A program made the position numbers and the translations under genes. The notes beneath the pieces were generated by a model that had not been told where the DNA came from, made no database searches, and worked only from the letters and a program-made list of their open reading frames with translations. Shown here in pieces: positions 1 to 6,134 of a stretch of DNA of 6,134 nucleotides. The stretch's first letter is position 1; each line of letters begins with the position of its first letter. Origin of the DNA: a virus. The DNA lies in IMG/VR virus record IMGVR_UViG_3300020029_000047, positions 1-6,134 of that record; one strand, 5' to 3'.

Positions 1-121
1 ATCGAGGGATCGAGTAATTATAATTGATACACTTCGAAGAATCGAAATAAGACCACGACGCAACGCGAGCAGAAGGACGAGGCATATAACCAAGAAAATC
101 ACCAACGCCAGCAGATACGAA
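1..121. repeat. Left copy of the 121-nt terminal redundancy (same as 6014-6134); circular-contig overlap, not a biological repeat
   Basis: atcgagggatcgagtaattataattgatac...ccagcagatacgaa reads identically at 1-121 and 6014-6134 by eye. It lies inside the Rep coding sequence. Confidence 0.95.
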
Positions 122-775
122 TTTTCGCGTATAACGGCGATGTTGGAGGAGGCAAGATAAAGGTGTAAGTTTTCCATCTACGGTAACATATTTATCCGAA
201 ATCTCTTCGGGATTAAATTGAATTTGTTTAGTAACATATTTGACACAATATCGAGCACGCTTATGAGTAGCCTTCGATAGCCACACAAAACCAAGGTCTC
301 GAACAGCAGCGCGAATTGTGTTGTAAAGAACGTCGGTGCCGAATAGAAAGCCATGAAAATGCAACCGAGGCTCATTTCCCATTTCAGGGTGTGTGCCAAA
401 CTCTTGGAAGAAAGCGTGCTTAAACGAATGACCGAGCTTATGTCGCAAACGCTCATTGAAACGTCGAATGAATCGAGAAGGATCGAGGAGCGCCTCATTG
501 TAATAACTCGGAGCAATCGTTATTGTAATAAAAATAGCCTGCCGACTATTAGCTTTACAACGAGTTAACTCGCGTTCCAATCGAACGAACCAATCATTAC
601 GCTGACGACGCAAGCAGTCTTCGCACTTTCCACAAGGAATCATAAGCCATTGACGAGCAATATCCCAGGGACGAAGGGCGAGTGCAGACTTAGCAACATC
701 AGAACCGTTACGGCAAGGATTTTTCTTGTCGAAATAACGGCGATTTCGTATCCATATGGGAGAAGAGCAAGCCAT
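1..775 (-). CDS. VP4: Replication initiation protein (Microviridae VP4 / gene A-like HUH endonuclease), N-terminal 258 codons; continues across the circular junction into 6013..5718
   Basis: Hand translation of the minus frame not listed in the ORF track. ATG is at 773-775, with an in-frame TAG 15 nt upstream, and the frame stays open to position 1. Protein: MACSSPIWIRNRRYFDKKNPCRNGSDVAKSALALRPWDIARQWLMIPCGKCEDCLRRQRNDWFVRLERELTRCKANSRQAIFITITIAPSYYNEALLDPSRFIRRFNERLRHKLGHSFKHAFFQEFGTHPEMGNEPRLHFHGFLFGTDVLYNTIRAAVRDLGFVWLSKATHKRARYCVKYVTKQIQFNPEEISDKYVTVDGKLTPLSCLLQHRRYTRKFVSAGVGDFLGYMPRPS... Rolling-circle motifs: motif 1 IFITITI, HUH as HFH (codons 353-361), and two-tyrosine motif YCVKYVTK (227-250; compare phiX174 A YVAKYVNK). 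There is also a CGKCEDC cysteine cluster. The M-x-C-x-x-P N-terminus is typical of microvirus Rep. Confidence 0.93.
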   Translation of the reverse strand, partial: MACSSPIWIRNRRYFDKKNPCRNGSDVAKSALALRPWDIARQWLMIPCGKCEDCLRRQRNDWFVRLERELTRCKANSRQAIFITITIAPSYYNEALLDPSRFIRRFNERLRHKLGHSFKHAFFQEFGTHPEMGNEPRLHFHGFLFGTDVLYNTIRAAVRDLGFVWLSKATHKRARYCVKYVTKQIQFNPEEISDKYVTVDGKLTPLSCLLQHRRYTRKFVSAGVGDFLGYMPRPSARVASWSYFDSSKCINYNYSIPR

Positions 776-975
776 TAAAAAAGACTTCTAAGGCAATCAA
801 ACTTAATATAAGGATTAGTACGACGACAACAGGCAAGATAATCATTCGCAGGGCTTTCATCGGCAAACCAGGCGATAATAACTCGCTTTCTGCCGCGATA
901 TGCGCCAACAGAATAACGATGGGGGACACTATTAATAATAGGGGAAAATCTAGGCTTGAAATCGAAATAATCCAT
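775..975 (-). CDS. Hypothetical small basic protein (66 aa), first gene after the non-coding region, coupled to Rep
   Basis: ATG is at 973-975 and TAA at 775-777. The stop shares one base with the Rep ATG (TAATG). Composition is non-repetitive (MDYFDFKPRFSPIINSVPHRYSVGAYRGRKRVIIAWFADESPANDYLACCRRTNPYIKFDCLRSLF), with net positive charge by my count. I recognise no family. Confidence 0.6.
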   Translation of the reverse strand: MDYFDFKPRFSPIINSVPHRYSVGAYRGRKRVIIAWFADESPANDYLACCRRTNPYIKFDCLRSLF

Positions 976-1016
976 AATTTAAAAATATTACTTGACAACA
1001 ATTACTACGTTTCGCC

Positions 1017-1058
1017 GGCCGACAGCCTTAACGGCTGGGACGCTGCGCGTCTTCGGCC
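1017..1058. other. GC-rich three-way-junction inverted-repeat element in the main intergenic region; candidate replication origin or priming signal
   Basis: All pairs are Watson-Crick. The outer stem is 1017-1022 (ggccga) with 1053-1058 (tcggcc). Hairpin A is 1023-1027 (cagcc) with 1033-1037 (ggctg), loop ttaac. Hairpin B is 1039-1043 (gacgc) with 1047-1051 (gcgtc), loop tgc. Only 1038 and 1052 are unpaired at the junction. This gives 16 bp in 42 nt, in the most GC-rich patch of the window. Confidence 0.5.
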
Positions 1059-1103
1059 TCCATGGCTACACTTCGTTTGGGTAATAACGGTAAACCGGTG
1101 AAT

Positions 1104-1137
1104 AAAAAAACCCGCAGGAGAGGAGAATCTCCTGGGG
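1104..1137 (-). terminator. Rho-independent terminator closing the minus-strand gene series
   Basis: The minus strand reads CCCCAGGAGATTCTCCTCTCCTGCGGG followed by TTTTTTT. The stem pairs caggaga 1115-1121 with tctcctg 1128-1134, plus ccc 1111-1113 with ggg 1135-1137. G1114 is bulged and the loop is 6 nt. The T7 run is the complement of 1104-1110. The element lies 47 nt downstream of the 107-aa ORF stop. Confidence 0.8.
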
Positions 1138-1183
1138 CTCAACAAGTTAAAGAACTCTTCCACCAAGCGGGCGGATCACTACT

Positions 1184-1507
1184 CTAGTGCCCTTTCCCTT
1201 CTTCTTTCGACGCGCTTTCATTGTGAGTCAAATCAGTGCTAAACATAAGAACAAGTGTATTATCGAAAAAATCAATCGAAAAATCAGGATACGCAATCAG
1301 GGCCTCTACAAGGCTCGGAATCCGACAATGATTGATATAGGGCGAAGCAAAGATACAAGAATGCTCTACAAAATCAGGAACAGGCGTATGCTCAAGAGTA
1401 GCAAGGGGTAATGTCGAAAACTGATCGTCTTTAATACAACCTACCTGAACAAAATCGGCCTTAATAGCCGGATTAATGCGGCGAATGACTATATGAACCT
1501 GTGTCAT
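1184..1507 (-). CDS. Hypothetical protein (107 aa), accessory, unknown function
   Basis: ATG is at 1505-1507 and TAG at 1184-1186. It starts 23 nt after the preceding ORF and is followed by the terminator. Composition looks globular (MTQVHIVIRRINPAIKADFVQVGCIKDDQF...). I recognise no motif. Confidence 0.65.
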   Translation of the reverse strand: MTQVHIVIRRINPAIKADFVQVGCIKDDQFSTLPLATLEHTPVPDFVEHSCIFASPYINHCRIPSLVEALIAYPDFSIDFFDNTLVLMFSTDLTHNESASKEEGKGH

Positions 1508-1530
1508 AATAATATAATTTAATGTTTCAT

Positions 1531-1836
1531 TTAAAGCTTATCGTAAAAACGCCTCCAAGCATCGGAGTGTTTAATCCAGAATTCGTAACCCTCAGGAGTT
1601 GAATGAAATAGAAAAGCAGAGGAGATGAGGGATTCGGGACCAAGGCTAGGCCTAAGATAAACATATCGGATGTGAGCACGCAACAAGTCTCGAAAGGTTT
1701 CCCGAGTCGTAGAGGTGCGATCGTAGTTCGCCCTAAAGGCGGTGAATATTCCGCGGCGAACGAGCCACTCAACGAATGCGTATTCTATAACATCGATCGC
1801 CAGCCTGTCAACTTTGGAATTTTTAGTTTTTTTCAT
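1531..1836 (-). CDS. Hypothetical protein (101 aa), accessory, unknown function
   Basis: ATG is at 1834-1836 and TAA at 1531-1533. A Bacteroides-type promoter match precedes it. The N-terminus is Lys-rich and the C-terminus is aromatic-rich (FLFHSTPEGYEFWIKHSDAWRRFY). I cannot assign a family from memory. Confidence 0.65.
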   Translation of the reverse strand: MKKTKNSKVDRLAIDVIEYAFVEWLVRRGIFTAFRANYDRTSTTRETFRDLLRAHIRYVYLRPSLGPESLISSAFLFHSTPEGYEFWIKHSDAWRRFYDKL

Positions 1837-1862
1837 AACAATACGGTTATTGGTTTACAATG

Positions 1863-1893
1863 CAAATATAATAACAACAATCTAAAATGCAAA
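1863..1893 (-). promoter_or_regulatory. Putative Bacteroidota sigma-AB type promoter (-33 TTTG / -7 TAnnTTTG) upstream of the 101/107-aa ORFs
   Basis: The minus strand of the 72-nt VP2/ORF101 intergenic region reads TTTG (1893-1890), then 19 nt, then TATATTTG (1870-1863), then 26 nt, then ATG (1836). This is an exact match to the published Bacteroides consensus TTTG-N19-21-TAnnTTTG. Confidence 0.45.
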
Positions 1894-1908
1894 AAAAAAT
1901 CAACAATT

Positions 1909-3279
1909 CTAGCGAGATCTTCGAGTAGTATTATACGAACTTGAGTGAGTGCCACGAGTCATCTCTGTTTTCGCATAACCAACAAGATTTCCTTTCGAGT
2001 CATAACGAGTCGTAAGGGAAGAGCCGGCAGAATCACTCGTAGAACCGCCAGCAGAGATAGTCTTAGATGCACGAGACATGCCTCCACGAATTATACCTGC
2101 ACCGGCGATACTAGCGGCCGCACCAACTAAAGCTTTAGAAATTTCAACATACGGGTCAACCTTCGCATTACGAAGGGCAATACGAGCTTGCTCGGGAAGA
2201 AAATCAGAAGCATTCGCCTCATTTATAATAGTTTTATCGTAGAAGTCTTTAAGCGACATTGAGATTTTAAAAGTCCTAGGACCAGGATTTCCACGGGTAA
2301 TAGGATTTTTGCTTCTAAGATTTTCTGAATACTGAGGATTCGGAATTTCAATATCAAAACGCTTTTCCCAATTACGTGCGAGCTCATTAGCAGTATCGAG
2401 ATTATTTAAACGCAAAGACTCTATGACTTCACCAGCCTGTTCGCCAAGAATTTGATTAAGAGCGGCCTGAGTATTCATCATAAAAGCCTGTGCGGACATC
2501 ACAGCACCTAAATGATCGTTCTCGATATTCAAGCGGCGAACCTCTCCAGCAGTTAGGGCAGCTTGATTCTTTTTTTCATCAATAGTACTCAAAAGAGTGG
2601 CATCTGAAATAAAAAGCGCATTCCTTTCAAGGCTCTCCTGTACCTTAAGAACATCAGTAACGGCCAAATTATGCTTAGTAGCAGCCTGATCTAGAGCTAC
2701 GCGAGTTTGAGCCATGAGAGTATATAACTGGTGGCCAACGTTTTGATCGCTAATTGATCGAGCCTCGGCATTGTCGCGATTGGCAGCAGCGGAATTACGG
2801 TCAACCGTAGACTGAGCAACCATATTCTGTGCAATAGAAGTAGGATCAGCAGGAGCGAAGCCACCGGAAGCAACAGAAGCGCCTCCCGCAGGTCCAGAGG
2901 CGGAGGGCATAGAAGCAGTGCCGCCCGACATGGTAGCATTGACGCCAACGCCAGAAGAGCCTAAAACGGCAGCAGGCGTCACACCAGCCTTTAGGTAACG
3001 ATCGAAAACCTTCGTAGGGTCATTATAGGCGTTCTCGTAATCGAACTGTTTCTGCCAATTAGCATAGGAAAGCTCCGACTGCTTTTGCATTTGCTCTAAA
3101 GCGTACTGCTGTTGAAGCTTCATTTGCTTTTGCTGAAAACGCCATTGGCGGCGGGCGTTCATTCCTCCGAAAAGCTGACCAAGAGCGCCGGTGATCAAGC
3201 CAGTAGTACCAGTAGAAGCAGCAGACTGACCGAGAGCTTGACCAAAAGATGCAGCAATGGGACCAATAGGAGCAGGCAT
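1909..3279 (-). CDS. VP2: Minor capsid / DNA pilot protein (Microviridae VP2, functional analogue of phiX174 H)
   Basis: 456-aa ORF with ATG 3277-3279 and TAG 1909-1911. The N-terminus is Gly/Ala-rich (MPAPIGPIAASFGQALGQSAASTGTTGLITGALGQLFGG). A Gln-rich block follows, then the conserved-looking ENAYNDPTKVFDRYLKAGVTPAAVLG segment, which fits the N-x-YN-x-P...R...AG-x-xP pattern I associate with gokusho/alpa VP2. After that comes a G/A/S low-complexity linker and a long, helix-prone central region. Confidence 0.85.
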   Translation of the reverse strand: MPAPIGPIAASFGQALGQSAASTGTTGLITGALGQLFGGMNARRQWRFQQKQMKLQQQYALEQMQKQSELSYANWQKQFDYENAYNDPTKVFDRYLKAGVTPAAVLGSSGVGVNATMSGGTASMPSASGPAGGASVASGGFAPADPTSIAQNMVAQSTVDRNSAAANRDNAEARSISDQNVGHQLYTLMAQTRVALDQAATKHNLAVTDVLKVQESLERNALFISDATLLSTIDEKKNQAALTAGEVRRLNIENDHLGAVMSAQAFMMNTQAALNQILGEQAGEVIESLRLNNLDTANELARNWEKRFDIEIPNPQYSENLRSKNPITRGNPGPRTFKISMSLKDFYDKTIINEANASDFLPEQARIALRNAKVDPYVEISKALVGAAASIAGAGIIRGGMSRASKTISAGGSTSDSAGSSLTTRYDSKGNLVGYAKTEMTRGTHSSSYNTTRRSR

Positions 3280-3280
3280 A

Positions 3281-3472
3281 CTACAGATGAGTTAAATTAT
3301 TAGAGCGGATAATATAATCAACACGAACAGTGTCAATATGAACACCGCTACGCTGCATCCTAGCCTGGGCAGAACACGAGGCAAGAAAGAAGGCGGCTAA
3401 AGCAGCAACGATAGACGAGACAAGCGTCCAAAACGCCTTCGACTTATAAAACGGTTGTTTGATATCAGACAT
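3281..3472 (-). CDS. Small predicted lipoprotein precursor (63 aa; mature about 31 aa). The alternative upstream ATG at 3581-3583 would give 100 aa
   Basis: From ATG 3470-3472: MSDIKQPFYKSKAFWTLVSSIVAALAAFFLASCSAQARMQRSGVHIDTVRVDYIIRSNNLTHL. It has a Lys-containing n-region, an uninterrupted hydrophobic h-region, and lipobox L-A-S-C with Cys33 (codon 3374-3376). TAG is at 3281-3283, 1 nt before the VP2 ATG. The upstream 37 codons coincide with a GC-rich hairpin plus T-run, so I favour the internal start. Confidence 0.6.
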   Translation of the reverse strand: MSDIKQPFYKSKAFWTLVSSIVAALAAFFLASCSAQARMQRSGVHIDTVRVDYIIRSNNLTHL

Positions 3473-3497
3473 GATAGTAGAATTTAAAGAACGATAG

Positions 3498-3575
3498 AAA
3501 AATGCGCGACCTCTCCTGCAGTCGTTACCAATAACCTCTAGCAATTCACGAACTCTTGCAAGAGGGGTCCGCGCA
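3498..3575 (-). terminator. Long imperfect hairpin followed by T5; candidate partial terminator or attenuator after the capsid/scaffold block
   Basis: Arm tgcgcgacctctcctgca (3503-3520) pairs with tgcaagaggggtccgcgca (3557-3575). That gives 16 Watson-Crick pairs interrupted by three small bulges, around a 36-nt interior. On the minus strand the 3' arm is followed directly by TTTTT (complement of 3498-3502). Confidence 0.35.
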
Positions 3576-3605
3576 CGTAACATATATCGTCAAGTAAAGA
3601 ATGTA

Positions 3606-3902
3606 CTATTTTTCTTCAGAATTAGTAGACTTCGAGTCAGACTTACTCCTATCTATCATTGAATCAATAAGTTCTTGACCTACTTCGAGACCGTCAAACT
3701 TATCCATACGAGAGAAGGAATTAGGGTCAAAATCGATATCAGGGTTGAACTTCTCCCCCTTCTCGAAATCAGAAGGCTCAACAACCACATCCGGCCGGCC
3801 GGGAAGAACATCGACAGAACCAGAGCCGTCGAGAACAGACATGATGCGCTGACCACGAGAAACATAAGTGGGAGCATCCTCAAGAAGCCAATCAAGTGCC
3901 AT
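3606..3902 (-). CDS. Acidic 98-aa protein; putative internal scaffolding protein (VP3-like by position and charge only)
   Basis: ATG is at 3900-3902, 12 nt after the VP1 stop, and TAG at 3606-3608. By my count there are about 22 Asp/Glu against about 11 Lys/Arg (MALDWLLEDAPTYVSRGQ...DIDFDPNSFSRMDKFDGLEVGQELIDSMIDRSKSDSKSTNSEEK). Scaffolding proteins of this family are acidic and are encoded beside the capsid genes. I recognise no sequence motif. Confidence 0.45.
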   Translation of the reverse strand: MALDWLLEDAPTYVSRGQRIMSVLDGSGSVDVLPGRPDVVVEPSDFEKGEKFNPDIDFDPNSFSRMDKFDGLEVGQELIDSMIDRSKSDSKSTNSEEK

Positions 3903-3914
3903 AAAATCAATGTA

Positions 3915-5714
3915 TTAACGATTAGTCAAACGGGTTGCAAAAGTTTTATTAATAAGGTTCTTTTTACGAACACTATACGACATATTCACAAAAAAATTGT
4001 CCTCAAGGTTCGAAGCAAAGGGGGAATTAACTTGCGACATATCGACAAACAGAAGGGGATAATACGACTTACTCGAGCCACCGCCGAAGATATCAAGAGA
4101 ACGCTGTTGGACCCAATAAGAGTAAAGAGAATTTGCGCCAACAGGACCCTGAAGCCGAGAAATCTGGCCCAAAACTTCATCGTAGGAAGACCTGAATTCA
4201 TTAAAACAGGGCTCCTGAGCAAGAACAACAGACGAAGCAGTAGAGGTCGACGTCGTAAGACGAAATGCAGGAACGTCTTGATATCCAATATCGTTATAAA
4301 TGGGATTGAAGTAATCCGGACCTTGATACGAAAGGTAATCAGGAGTAATTGAGGCCCAATAATAAACTGGACGAATACTCAGCATATCAATCAGGTAACC
4401 AGGCTCACGAAAATAGTAAGACTGAACGCGACCGAGTCGAGAATTAAACGCAATAGCTCCACCTTGCTGACCAAGAGGGCCACCAGTCGACGACCCAGTA
4501 AAATTATTTTGGCCGGCTTGATTCATGACAATCTGCACATTAACGGTTTGCGAAGCGGAAAAAAGGAGTTTAGGACGGTCTACGTGCTCAATCTTCGAAG
4601 CAAAAAACGTCTCGAGCCAATCAGAATAACGACTACCACCAGCACCAAGCAGGTCCTTGTATTCCTGCAAACGAGAAGCAATGGCCAACTGAGGAATCGT
4701 CGAGACACCGCTCATCGAAACGGCGGAATTTGAACCGGTAGGAAGCAAACGGCTGTAACGGTCGGGATTAGAAGGGACAACGGCCATAGGATGAGCAATG
4801 ACGAAATAAGCGAGTTCCGAGGAGCCGGTAGTAGACCCAGAGGTAGAAAATTGACTCGAAGGAGTGGAAGCACCCCAAGTTGCATAACCAGCGGAAACAG
4901 TAGGAACCACAGATACAGGATAACCGTCCCCCGCGGAACCAGCGCCGCCAATGTCAGAACGAATAATCTGATAGAAAAGGCTGAACCGATTGTAAGTTCC
5001 ATTCGTAGAAGGCACCGAGGAAGGATAAAATTGGGATTCAAAAAATGCGTCTAAATACTCCAAATTTCCATAACGCTGTGTGAAGAGCGAAGGGGAAGAA
5101 TTGTATCCTACAATACGAGAAGGGCCAGAAACGCCGTCCTCGCTACTGTACAAATACCAAGAAGCAGGCCAAGCGAAGGAATATACACCCCATTGAGAAT
5201 AACCGTAATAATTACGAACTATATCCCAGTAAGCAAGATACGAATCCGCATTAACCCACTGAGTATGAAACGTACCAGCAGGGAGGACGACACCAGCAGG
5301 ACCATTGATACCGGAGTTGACACCATGGAACGAATGGCGCAACCAGAAATTCAACGAATTTGTAAACGAATAACTACGACCAAAAACAGAGCCAGACAAA
5401 GCGTTAGGAATCCAATTCAGACTCAAATTGTTCATGTCAAATTTGCTACTATTCGTCCTCATCTCGGGGTGATACAGCTGCAGAGGCACCCAGAAACGAT
5501 GAAGTCGAACAGTATAGGGATTAAACGTCGGAACAGCAAGAGGATTACTGCGGACGTCAATGCCCTGCTCGATAGAGACGCGGTCACGGGCGTTGATAAA
5601 ATCGATTCGCACCGGATATAAAATACCCGGTGTACACGTAAAAGCCTTACTCTCAGGAACATCGTAGCGAGAGTAGCCGTTTACAACGTGAGAAATAAAA
5701 GGTTGTTTCCCCAT
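3915..5714 (-). CDS. VP1: Major capsid protein (Microviridae VP1 / F-protein family)
   Basis: This is the longest ORF (599 aa), with ATG 5712-5714 and TAA 3915-3917, starting 3 nt after the Rep stop. The N-terminal block SRYDVPESKAFTCTPGILYPVRIDFINARDRVSIEQGIDVRSNPLAVPTFNPYTVRLHRFWVPLQLY follows the conserved pattern of microvirus capsid N-termini: short motif, G-x-L-x-P, P-x-D, then R-x-x-x-F-x-VP. Size and the Ser/Gly/Thr-rich central insertion fit gokusho/alpa-type VP1. Confidence 0.92.
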   Translation of the reverse strand: MGKQPFISHVVNGYSRYDVPESKAFTCTPGILYPVRIDFINARDRVSIEQGIDVRSNPLAVPTFNPYTVRLHRFWVPLQLYHPEMRTNSSKFDMNNLSLNWIPNALSGSVFGRSYSFTNSLNFWLRHSFHGVNSGINGPAGVVLPAGTFHTQWVNADSYLAYWDIVRNYYGYSQWGVYSFAWPASWYLYSSEDGVSGPSRIVGYNSSPSLFTQRYGNLEYLDAFFESQFYPSSVPSTNGTYNRFSLFYQIIRSDIGGAGSAGDGYPVSVVPTVSAGYATWGASTPSSQFSTSGSTTGSSELAYFVIAHPMAVVPSNPDRYSRLLPTGSNSAVSMSGVSTIPQLAIASRLQEYKDLLGAGGSRYSDWLETFFASKIEHVDRPKLLFSASQTVNVQIVMNQAGQNNFTGSSTGGPLGQQGGAIAFNSRLGRVQSYYFREPGYLIDMLSIRPVYYWASITPDYLSYQGPDYFNPIYNDIGYQDVPAFRLTTSTSTASSVVLAQEPCFNEFRSSYDEVLGQISRLQGPVGANSLYSYWVQQRSLDIFGGGSSKSYYPLLFVDMSQVNSPFASNLEDNFFVNMSYSVRKKNLINKTFATRLTNR

Positions 5715-5717
5715 AAA

Positions 5718-6134
5718 TTAAGTAATTAGTTGAAGTTTATAATAATCTCTCCAAAATTGAAAGATATCCAAATCGAGCCAAGTAGGGGGGTCAAAGTCGG
5801 GCATTTTCCGAGAGGAGGCAGAAAAACGCATTACTTGCTTTTGTTCCCACGTGTATGACGCTCTACGGGATACGGCGGAATTGAGATTGAACCGGTCAAC
5901 ACACAAAGACACAATACGCTTAACCAAAGGAGACTTGCTAAAATGTGCATAAGCGTCAGCAGCGGCAATCGAACGCATGACTTCGTCCTCCGATTTAAGA
6001 TACTTAAGATAGTATCGAGGGATCGAGTAATTATAATTGATACACTTCGAAGAATCGAAATAAGACCACGACGCAACGCGAGCAGAAGGACGAGGCATAT
6101 AACCAAGAAAATCACCAACGCCAGCAGATACGAA
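5718..6134 (-). CDS. VP4: Replication initiation protein VP4, C-terminal part (unique sequence 5718-6013; 6014-6134 duplicates 1-121). Full protein 356 aa, 1071 nt including stop
   Basis: The track ORF 5718..6098 begins at internal Met231 of Rep. The frame remains open upstream to the window end (6132-6134 is a whole codon). Because 6013 mod 3 = 1, this frame is continuous with the 775..1 frame. Stop TAA is at 5718-5720, 3 nt before the VP1 ATG. Confidence 0.93.
   Translation of the reverse strand, partial: FVSAGVGDFLGYMPRPSARVASWSYFDSSKCINYNYSIPRYYLKYLKSEDEVMRSIAAADAYAHFSKSPLVKRIVSLCVDRFNLNSAVSRRASYTWEQKQVMRFSASSRKMPDFDPPTWLDLDIFQFWRDYYKLQLIT
6014..6134. repeat. Right copy of the 121-nt terminal redundancy (same as 1-121)
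   Basis: Same as the left copy. The window ends exactly where the duplicated text ends. Confidence 0.95.

Follow-up and report, generated by a model that had tools for sequence, protein, structure and literature searches.

In the mammalian gut, microviruses rank with the most abundant phages. To our knowledge, outside phiX174 and a few gokushoviruses, usually VP1, VP2, and VP4 alone can be named in their genomes. In phiX174, a strong internal promoter (PD) and a leaky terminator (TJ) raise protein dose in the segment PD-D/E-J-TJ. Accessory genes are scarce in microviruses, whereas small proteins that cannot be assigned are numerous (Kirchberger et al.), and neither Krupovic and Forterre nor Roux et al. 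found equivalents of C/VP5 or J/VP8 in Bacteroidetes microviruses. Here, we describe a locus in IMG/VR virus record IMGVR_UViG_3300020029_000047, positions 1 to 6,134; this whole stretch of 6,134 nucleotides (nt) is called the window. As judged from the sequence, the minus strand of positions 1104 to 1893 is shown to form one conserved predicted transcription unit of a Bacteroidales-infecting microvirus, in the order host-type promoter, open reading frame (ORF) ORF101, ORF107, an overlapping gene for a J/VP8-like protein of 24 amino acids (aa), and intrinsic terminator.

The layout recalls PD-D/E-J-TJ. In both cases, an internal promoter in a circular genome transcribed from one strand drives a short unit that ends in the gene for a tiny basic protein (DNA binding in phiX174 and presumably here), with the terminator directly after it. 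Reading frames overlap in both, and the upstream genes encode nonvirion morphogenesis proteins, a role that ORF101 and ORF107 may share. The differences are that ORF101 and ORF107 do not resemble D, E, or C in sequence or fold; that the promoter is of the Bacteroidetes type, not sigma-70; and that the terminator precedes a large intergenic region and Rep, not a capsid gene. There is a second parallel in the gokushoviruses. In the Bdellovibrio phage phiMH2K, VP5 (phrog_1670), a small protein of about 85 to 105 aa, is encoded between VP2 and VP4, immediately upstream of a J/VP8-type gene, and in EC6098, VP8 follows VP2. ORF107 lies in this VP5-type position, as a small nonstructural gene between VP2/VP3 and VP4 that adjoins a J/VP8-type gene, whereas its profile does not match gokushovirus VP5 (PF20577). 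The unit is a variant of a known microvirus expression-unit type, and what is new to annotation is the 24-aa J-like gene.

Promoter, genes, and terminator of the unit

We defined a Bacteroidetes-type (sigma-AB-type) promoter as a -7 TAnnTTTG, the published consensus (PMC4747536), and a -33 TTTG about 19 to 21 nt apart, upstream of a gene. The predicted promoter of the unit (1863 to 1893, minus strand), found by consensus match and positional conservation, consists of a -33 TTTG, an N19 spacer, and the -7 box TATATTTG, and it ends 26 nt before the ATG of ORF101. TTTG-N19-TATATTTG is the sole full match of this type in the genome when both strands are scanned. At least one match also occurs in 23% of dinucleotide shuffles of the genome, so a lone match in 6 kb is unremarkable by itself, and the weight of the promoter comes from its conserved position across relatives. 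In a comparison set of 80 related genomes from IMG/VR and GenBank, the -7 box lies 33 to 35 nt before the ATG in 69 and anywhere within 100 nt upstream in 73. A first-pass annotation, made from the letters alone, had singled out this site as the best promoter in the genome; it scores just 9/12 against the sigma-70 consensus but is a perfect match to the Bacteroidetes type. The 5' leader CATTGTAAACCAATAACCGTATTGTT (1837 to 1862, minus strand), which runs from the -7 box to the ORF101 ATG, is also conserved. Its stretch GTAAACCAATAACC is almost invariant in the 80 upstream regions, and the sequence diverges further upstream.

The first gene, ORF101 (1531 to 1836, minus strand), encodes a basic, all-helical protein of 101 aa with an isoelectric point (pI) of 9.8, and the second, ORF107 (1184 to 1507, minus strand), encodes an acidic alpha+beta protein of 107 aa with a pI of 5.1. 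Both were taken from the ORF list and supported by homologs, and both are genuine genes, as the first-pass annotation had proposed. On contigs of about 6 kb, ORF101 has 215 homologs of almost fixed length (101 to 109 aa) and ORF107 has 213, nearly all of 107 aa. The two genes are adjacent in all 80 fetched genomes, separated by 2 to 23 nt and always located between VP2 and Rep. Pairwise ratios of nonsynonymous to synonymous substitution rates (dN/dS) are 0.29 to 0.32 for ORF101 and 0.26 to 0.27 for ORF107. In the GenBank relatives, both are annotated merely as hypothetical proteins.

A scan for short basic ORFs revealed a gene of 24 codons (1147 to 1221, minus strand). Its product is MKARRKKKGKGTRVVIRPLGGRVL, and its reading frame, different from that of ORF107, runs through the final 12 ORF107 codons. 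Near-invariant copies occur in 78 of the 80 relatives, the two exceptions being truncated contigs. Nucleotide variability at codon positions 1, 2, and 3 is 0.018, 0.051, and 0.180, a pattern that holds inside and outside the overlap. Versions were recovered even from relatives whose VP1 is just 39 to 43% identical (Microvirus mar42, MSRKNRRRKKSGRRVVHRPLLGPVM; bajarodmic virus 416, MSKKKSRRRGRRVITRPLLGPVL). Lys and Arg make up 42% of the protein, and it ends in VVIRPLGGRVL, where phiMH2K J and EC6098 VP8 both end in RGGIRL (VP8, ...MRGGIRL). J/VP8 proteins were described for this comparison as 25 to 40 aa long, with a Lys/Arg-rich N terminus and a short hydrophobic C terminus; the 24-aa protein is likewise tiny, Lys/Arg rich, and hydrophobic at its C terminus, and its gene lies near the end of the structural block. 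Its size, composition, C-terminal GGRVL, and the three-base periodicity of variation point to a coding gene, and substitution patterns show all three genes of the unit to be under purifying selection. The gene is unannotated in the GenBank relatives and is also missed by automatic gene calls on related metagenome contigs from the Joint Genome Institute (JGI).

The overlapping gene bears on several earlier readings of the stretch. Positioned after ORF107 and before the terminator, it brings the unit to three genes, not two as the first-pass annotation had described. The conserved acidic tail of ORF107, SKEEGKG, is explained by the constraint that the overlapping gene imposes, and a terminator-like hairpin at 1175 to 1159 falls within this gene and is therefore coding sequence.

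The unit closes with an intrinsic-terminator-like hairpin (1104 to 1140, minus strand) found by consensus scan, with a core stem CCCCAGGAGA...TCTCCTGCGGG followed by a T7 run and a fold energy of about -19.5 kcal/mol. Most relatives have a hairpin and T-run 45 to 77 nt past the ORF107 stop, with differing stem sequences, and compensatory double changes occur across relatives in 8 of the 10 predicted pairs. Covariation thus bears out the terminator that had been proposed here. Together with the conservation of the promoter, it also supports the proposal of an independently promoted, terminator-bounded module, which stands as a prediction from sequence-level signals.

Families of ORF101 and ORF107

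ORF101 begins with the basic sequence MKKTKNSK and carries the motif TPEGYEFW-x6-W, both as noted in the first-pass annotation. Its AlphaFold2 model has five helices and a predicted local distance difference test (pLDDT) score of 88.8, and a fold search of the PDB with this model returned no match. The C-terminal third matches four families of unknown function (phrog_30073, phrog_10949, phrog_16354, and phrog_25460); these matches recur in 4 to 8 of nine diverse ORF101 members (hmmscan), with best E values of 2e-4 to 2e-3. This region conforms to the motif [AS]F-x-[FW]-x2-TPEG-x2-FW, and residues F75, F77, T80, P81, G83, and W87 are invariant in nine diverse homologs. The Pseudomonas phage protein PAK_P3 gp073 (...SAFVWSDTPEGYDFWLDK), which belongs to this group of families, aligns here with ORF101 (...SAFLFHSTPEGYEFWIKH) at an hhalign probability of 93.6%.

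Scanning IMG/VR for F-x4-TPEG-x2-FW returned at least 120 stretches. At least 72 domain instances (at least 47 of them distinct) come from loci outside the microvirus size range of 4 to 7 kb, on contigs of about 4 to 400 kb. Among the listed matches, the domain makes up standalone proteins of 70 to 120 aa, is repeated in tandem, or is fused at the N terminus of larger proteins. ORF101 and the copies in double-stranded DNA (dsDNA) phages also have in common an N-terminal helix pattern, [FW]L-x3-G-x5-F-x2-N, that is independent of the search motif (for example, FVEWLVRRGIFTAFRANY in ORF101 and FLRYLKERGAYTAYLRNI in dsDNA-phage copies). In hhalign comparisons of ORF101 with the dsDNA-phage copies, the full-length probability was 98.6%; the N-terminal parts alone gave 83% (E value of 9e-6), which is moderate support. 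Because both the C-terminal PHROG matches and the N-terminal pattern extend to dsDNA-phage proteins, ORF101 is, by sequence comparison, a microviral member of a widespread phage small-domain family of the form WL...N...F-x-W-x2-TPEG-x2-FW. It shares with PAK_P3 gp073 and the PHROG families the N-terminal helix and the C-terminal helix-cap motif (SAF-x-[FW]-x2-TPEG-x2-FW); it differs in having an extra helix (residues 48 to 61) and a Lys-rich N terminus and in being encoded by a 6-kb single-stranded DNA (ssDNA) phage.

The repeated and fused arrangements are a feature of the dsDNA-phage members. Across six contigs (L130, L137, L140, L194, L221, and L222), the domain is present in 2 to 4 tandem copies, including in a protein of 679 aa, and is also fused N-terminally to other modules. 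We take the C-terminal parts of the fusions to resemble DUF3310 (L140), DUF1599 (L137), and DUF5664 (L194), relatives of MazG-like nucleotide pyrophosphohydrolases, and treat this as an unconfirmed lead. PDB sequence searches with two of the fusion proteins found nothing, all dsDNA-phage carriers are named "hypothetical protein," and an ORF101 profile search returned the same family alone among the matches listed (best 120).

ORF107 has a net charge of -7 and the scattered Cys and His residues and acidic tail that had been described from its sequence. The AlphaFold2 model (pLDDT of 87.4) shows an alpha+beta fold with a disordered tail. A PDB fold search gave no significant match; the top result was GFRP, with an E value of 0.07 and a template modeling (TM) score of 0.37 to 0.44, which we dropped as too weak, and the idea of an ORF107 pentamer that it suggested is speculation. 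A PDB sequence match to 8FJE "E8" (E value of 1.9e-4) proved spurious, as it summed weak repeat-protein matches whose best single stretch had an independent E value of 2.1. Good matches in BFVD were to uncharacterized Microviridae proteins alone, at 12 to 28% identity at the lowest, and included a protein of Microvirus mar42 that has the ORF107 fold. A profile search of 1.84 billion representatives recovered 17 clusters, nearly all of full length (97 to 114 aa) along with a few shorter fragments, and gave no bridge to known families. ORF107 has no Pfam or PHROG family, and an exact look-up of the window protein found no record. The wider ORF107 alignment contains no invariant column, which argues against an enzyme.

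The first-pass annotation had proposed surveying this slot for presence and absence among relatives, and the two genes behave differently. Tortoise microvirus 7 (VP1, 71% identical) and Dulem virus 210 (VP1, 60% identical) both lack ORF101 and have an ORF107 homolog directly after VP2 (hhalign, 98.6% and 95%, respectively). In Dulem virus 210, this homolog comes directly after a full promoter match. ORF101 is thus optional in the family and, being absent from close relatives, cannot be an essential scaffold. ORF107 is core to this microvirus family, as counted in genomes retrieved through ORF107 itself and in the two relatives lacking ORF101. Its constant length, presence throughout this set, and fixed position make it look like a core life-cycle gene. 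In two distant relatives, another conserved ORF of about 127 to 151 aa lies between the ORF107-position gene and the J-like gene (bajarodmic virus 416, L091 3971 to 4426; Microvirus mar42, L092 3718 to 4101); the two share ...FSF.E/DF..CLL.FP.FA..., and the interval from VP2 to J appears to be a variable slot.

Neither protein could be placed among described microvirus proteins. In hmmscan, the window ORF107 and 13 diverse members gave no match to PF20577 (Phage_ORF5), and a profile of 13 diverse ORF107 sequences compared with a VP5 profile of 11 sequences reached an hhalign probability of 1.3%. The positive control, phiMH2K VP5, matches PF20577 at an E value of 2e-30, and EC6098 VP5 does not reach the Pfam threshold (E value of 5e-4; 20 bits versus a cutoff of 27). 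No member of either ORF family matches PF20577, PF09675 (Chlamy_scaf), or PF12025. Values from hhalign were at most 0.6% against EC6098 VP3, phiMH2K VP3, and phiX174 B and at most 0.5% against phiX174 C (PF12025) and the external scaffold D; single-sequence comparisons with VP3, VP5, B, C, and D gave at most 1.5%. Foldseek searches of the PDB, D structures included, returned no microvirus protein for either model, and profile comparisons with VP2 to VP5, VP8, and phiX174 A*, B, C, D, E, J, and K were all negative. A placement in known core families, which the first-pass annotation had named as the outcome that would overturn its view, did not emerge. An apparent resemblance of ORF107 to VP5 seen by eye (DFSL/DFSI and an N-terminal strand) found no support when widened profiles were compared in hhalign. 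When diverse members of both families were scanned against Pfam at E values up to 10, just isolated chance matches were returned, and the searches of Pfam, PDB sequences, and PDB folds found no characterized relative of ORF101 or ORF107. The earlier statement that neither protein belongs to a recognized family therefore stands with regard to characterized relatives and gives way for ORF101, which matches the four PHROG families of unknown function.

Possible functions of the unit

The reading that we favor, tentatively and by analogy, is that the unit may be the counterpart of phiX174 PD-D/E-J-TJ, with ORF107 as a packaging or assembly helper and ORF101 as an add-on. In such a unit, proteins needed in stoichiometric amounts for capsid assembly and ssDNA packaging would be made in larger doses through a strong internal promoter and a leaky terminator. 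As a DNA-condensing protein, the 24-aa product would enter the capsid along with the genome. A near-invariant J/VP8-like gene within the unit would tie it to virion DNA packaging, not to an add-on function. ORF107 would act as a packaging or assembly helper in the role of C/VP5 or a scaffolding protein, without detectable homology to either; we propose this role because the protein is family-core, acidic, apparently nonenzymatic, and translated immediately ahead of, and with overlap into, the basic miniprotein. ORF101 would be an optional passenger behind the same promoter, probably acting by binding a partner.

A bolder version, which we hold to be rather unlikely, is that Bacteroidales microviruses may have swapped the C/VP5 or scaffolding function for a nonhomologous ORF107, with a fold unseen in solved structures, coexpressed and in translational overlap with a minimal 24-aa J-type peptide, and that, separately, the ORF101 domain is common to 6-kb ssDNA phages and to dsDNA phages up to jumbo size. 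If this is true, the sharing of the ORF101 domain would imply a generic, portable phage function directed at a target conserved across very different hosts.

Several observations weigh against a packaging or assembly role. Protein evolution in the genome is fastest for ORF101 and ORF107, with median dN values of 0.41 and 0.25 versus 0.07 to 0.09 for Rep, ORF98, and ORF100, and both evolve 3 to 6 times faster than Rep; the median for VP2 is similar (0.38). Such rates would be no less expected of proteins that interact with the host than of assembly factors. Neither ORF107 nor ORF101 has homology to a protein of known function in Pfam, PHROGs, PDB sequences or folds, or the small proteins of phiX174, EC6098, and phiMH2K. 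The position at which an internal scaffold is predicted, directly after VP1, is already taken by the conserved acidic ORF98. The 24-aa protein resembles J by analogy; it is shorter than gokushovirus VP8 (38 to 39 aa) and gave no match to the VP8 family phrog_10695 at E values up to 10, a search in which EC6098 VP8 and phiMH2K J scored 1.6e-10 and 8e-8. This negative carries little weight, given how very short the query is and how biased its composition.

The main rival hypothesis is that the unit is a host-interaction module, in which ORF101, ORF107, or both are made early and in large amounts for host takeover, anti-defense, or superinfection exclusion and the J-like gene just shares the transcript. 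We consider this rather unlikely, and for ORF101, roles in anti-defense, host takeover, or lysis are guesses. The hypothesis draws on the strong host-type promoter predicted for the unit, on rates of protein evolution that top the genome and equal those of the host-contacting pilot protein VP2, and on the patchy distribution of ORF101, whose domain is typical of small proteins of large dsDNA phages (PAK_P3 gp073, for instance, lies in a block of small hypothetical genes). The acidity of ORF107, with its net charge of -7, is also shared by many DNA-mimic anti-restriction proteins. The host-interaction hypothesis fits less well with the constant length and fixed position of ORF107, retained in both relatives that lack ORF101, with dN/dS values well under 1, and with the GC content of the two genes, which is ordinary (0.45 and 0.42 versus 0.446 for the genome); neither protein has a transmembrane segment or a known anti-defense match, the PADLOC library not having been searched. 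A related suggestion of the first-pass annotation, that the pair is an accessory, moron-like cassette, fares unevenly. Like the morons of lambdoid phages, the unit has its own promoter and terminator, at the level of sequence signals, and ORF101 comes and goes among close relatives and belongs to a dsDNA-phage domain family, so that the idea holds in part for this gene. For the pair it fails: in contrast to morons, ORF107 and the J-like gene form part of the family core, the base composition does not deviate, and the promoter is an element of the core unit that persists in the absence of ORF101. Nor are ORF101 and ORF107 a coinherited pair, since pairwise protein distances of Rep, ORF98, ORF100, VP2, ORF101, and ORF107 are almost uncorrelated (Spearman coefficients of at most 0.31 in 67 genomes, window included; 0.26 for ORF101 versus ORF107), which indicates that the modules recombine freely. 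Owing to this rampant recombination, the covariation of ORF107 with other genes, with all correlations at or below 0.31, is uninformative.

Another hypothesis is that the unit is ordinary core in disguise, with ORF107 an extremely diverged gokushovirus VP5 or phiX174 C and ORF101 a diverged VP3-type scaffold. The gene order, which is like the VP2-VP3-VP5-J-VP4 of phiMH2K, is its sole support in the overall weighing; VP5 is itself so divergent that the EC6098 protein misses the Pfam threshold, and beta-hairpin motifs show a short local resemblance. We nevertheless judge it distinctly unlikely, given the 1.3% probability of the ORF107 and VP5 profile comparison, the lack of any PF20577, PF09675, or PF12025 match in either family, single-protein comparisons of at most 1.5%, and the finding that ORF101 is missing from close relatives and is instead homologous to dsDNA-phage proteins. 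That ORF101, ORF107, or both are fortuitous open frames within a noncoding or otherwise constrained region might be argued from the ORFs of 74 to 90 aa that other frames of the stretch also hold; it is effectively refuted by hundreds of homologs of conserved length, dN/dS values of about 0.3, confident AlphaFold2 models (pLDDT of 87 to 89), and the annotation of both ORFs in relatives by independent gene callers.

The analysis supplies a concrete expression unit, with a predicted host-type promoter and terminator, for a whole family that probably infects Alistipes. The unannotated J-like gene would place a DNA-condensing function in the family genome, the J role being assigned by analogy. Two protein families with confident models and without known relatives are now directly testable, and the link between ORF101 and the dsDNA-phage domain offers an unusually small, tractable genome in which to find the function of that domain. 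Should the functions prove to be ordinary packaging or assembly, the result would be useful annotation and no surprise.

Genome organization and other features

The window is a circle of 6,013 nt plus a 121-nt terminal overlap: a direct repeat at 1 to 121 and 6014 to 6134 is the assembly overlap of a circular genome. Every gene is on the minus strand. Rep/VP4 (356 aa) wraps around the window ends, running from 775 to 1 and then from 6013 to 5718, and is missing from mechanical ORF lists because it spans the circle junction. VP1 (3915 to 5714, minus strand) was identified by a Phage_F match and VP2 (1909 to 3279, minus strand) by a match to pilot-protein PHROGs, and the gene order from VP2 onward is VP2-ORF101-ORF107-J-like-ORF66-VP4. 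The nearest GenBank records are fecal Microviridae (MG945455, MG945664, and the bajarodmic viruses). The MG945 records have been placed in "Family 18," nested in Family 4, with Alistipes as the predicted host (Kirchberger et al. 2022, PMC9239249 supplement). Rfam and tRNA scans of the window found nothing.

Two further small genes lie between VP1 and VP2. ORF98 (3606 to 3902, minus strand), directly after VP1, is strongly acidic and conserved, and its motif MDKFDG.EVGQELI persists even in relatives whose VP1 is 43% identical; a VP3-like internal scaffold has been predicted at this type of position in Bacteroidetes microviruses (PMC3091885). When read from the internal Met38, ORF100 (3281 to 3583, minus strand) resembles the precursor of a lipoprotein, in which the n-region is basic, the core is hydrophobic, and LASC is the lipobox. 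The predicted mature lipoprotein of about 30 aa resembles bacteriocin-release or lysis lipoproteins and o-spanins, making ORF100 a candidate lysis gene; its best local match is 80 to 98% identical in most relatives.

The stop codon of ORF66 (MDYFDFKPRF...KFDCLRSLF; 775 to 975, minus strand; pI of 9.5) overlaps the ATG of Rep. Of the 74 genomes from which ORF66 was recovered, 63 have a version of 66 aa, and gene calls on JGI contigs include it. ORF66 belongs to no Pfam or PHROG family, and an assignment to VP5/C was rejected after hhalign gave at most 0.4% and Pfam and PHROGs gave nothing. ORF66 may be a Rep-coupled replication factor. No promoter for ORF66/Rep was recognized; a lone -7-like box is found at 805. 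In the intergenic region (976 to 1146, minus strand), past the terminator, a GC-rich, strongly structured stretch (about 1010 to 1075) is followed by an AT-rich segment before ORF66; this region could contain the replication origin or a complementary-strand priming signal.

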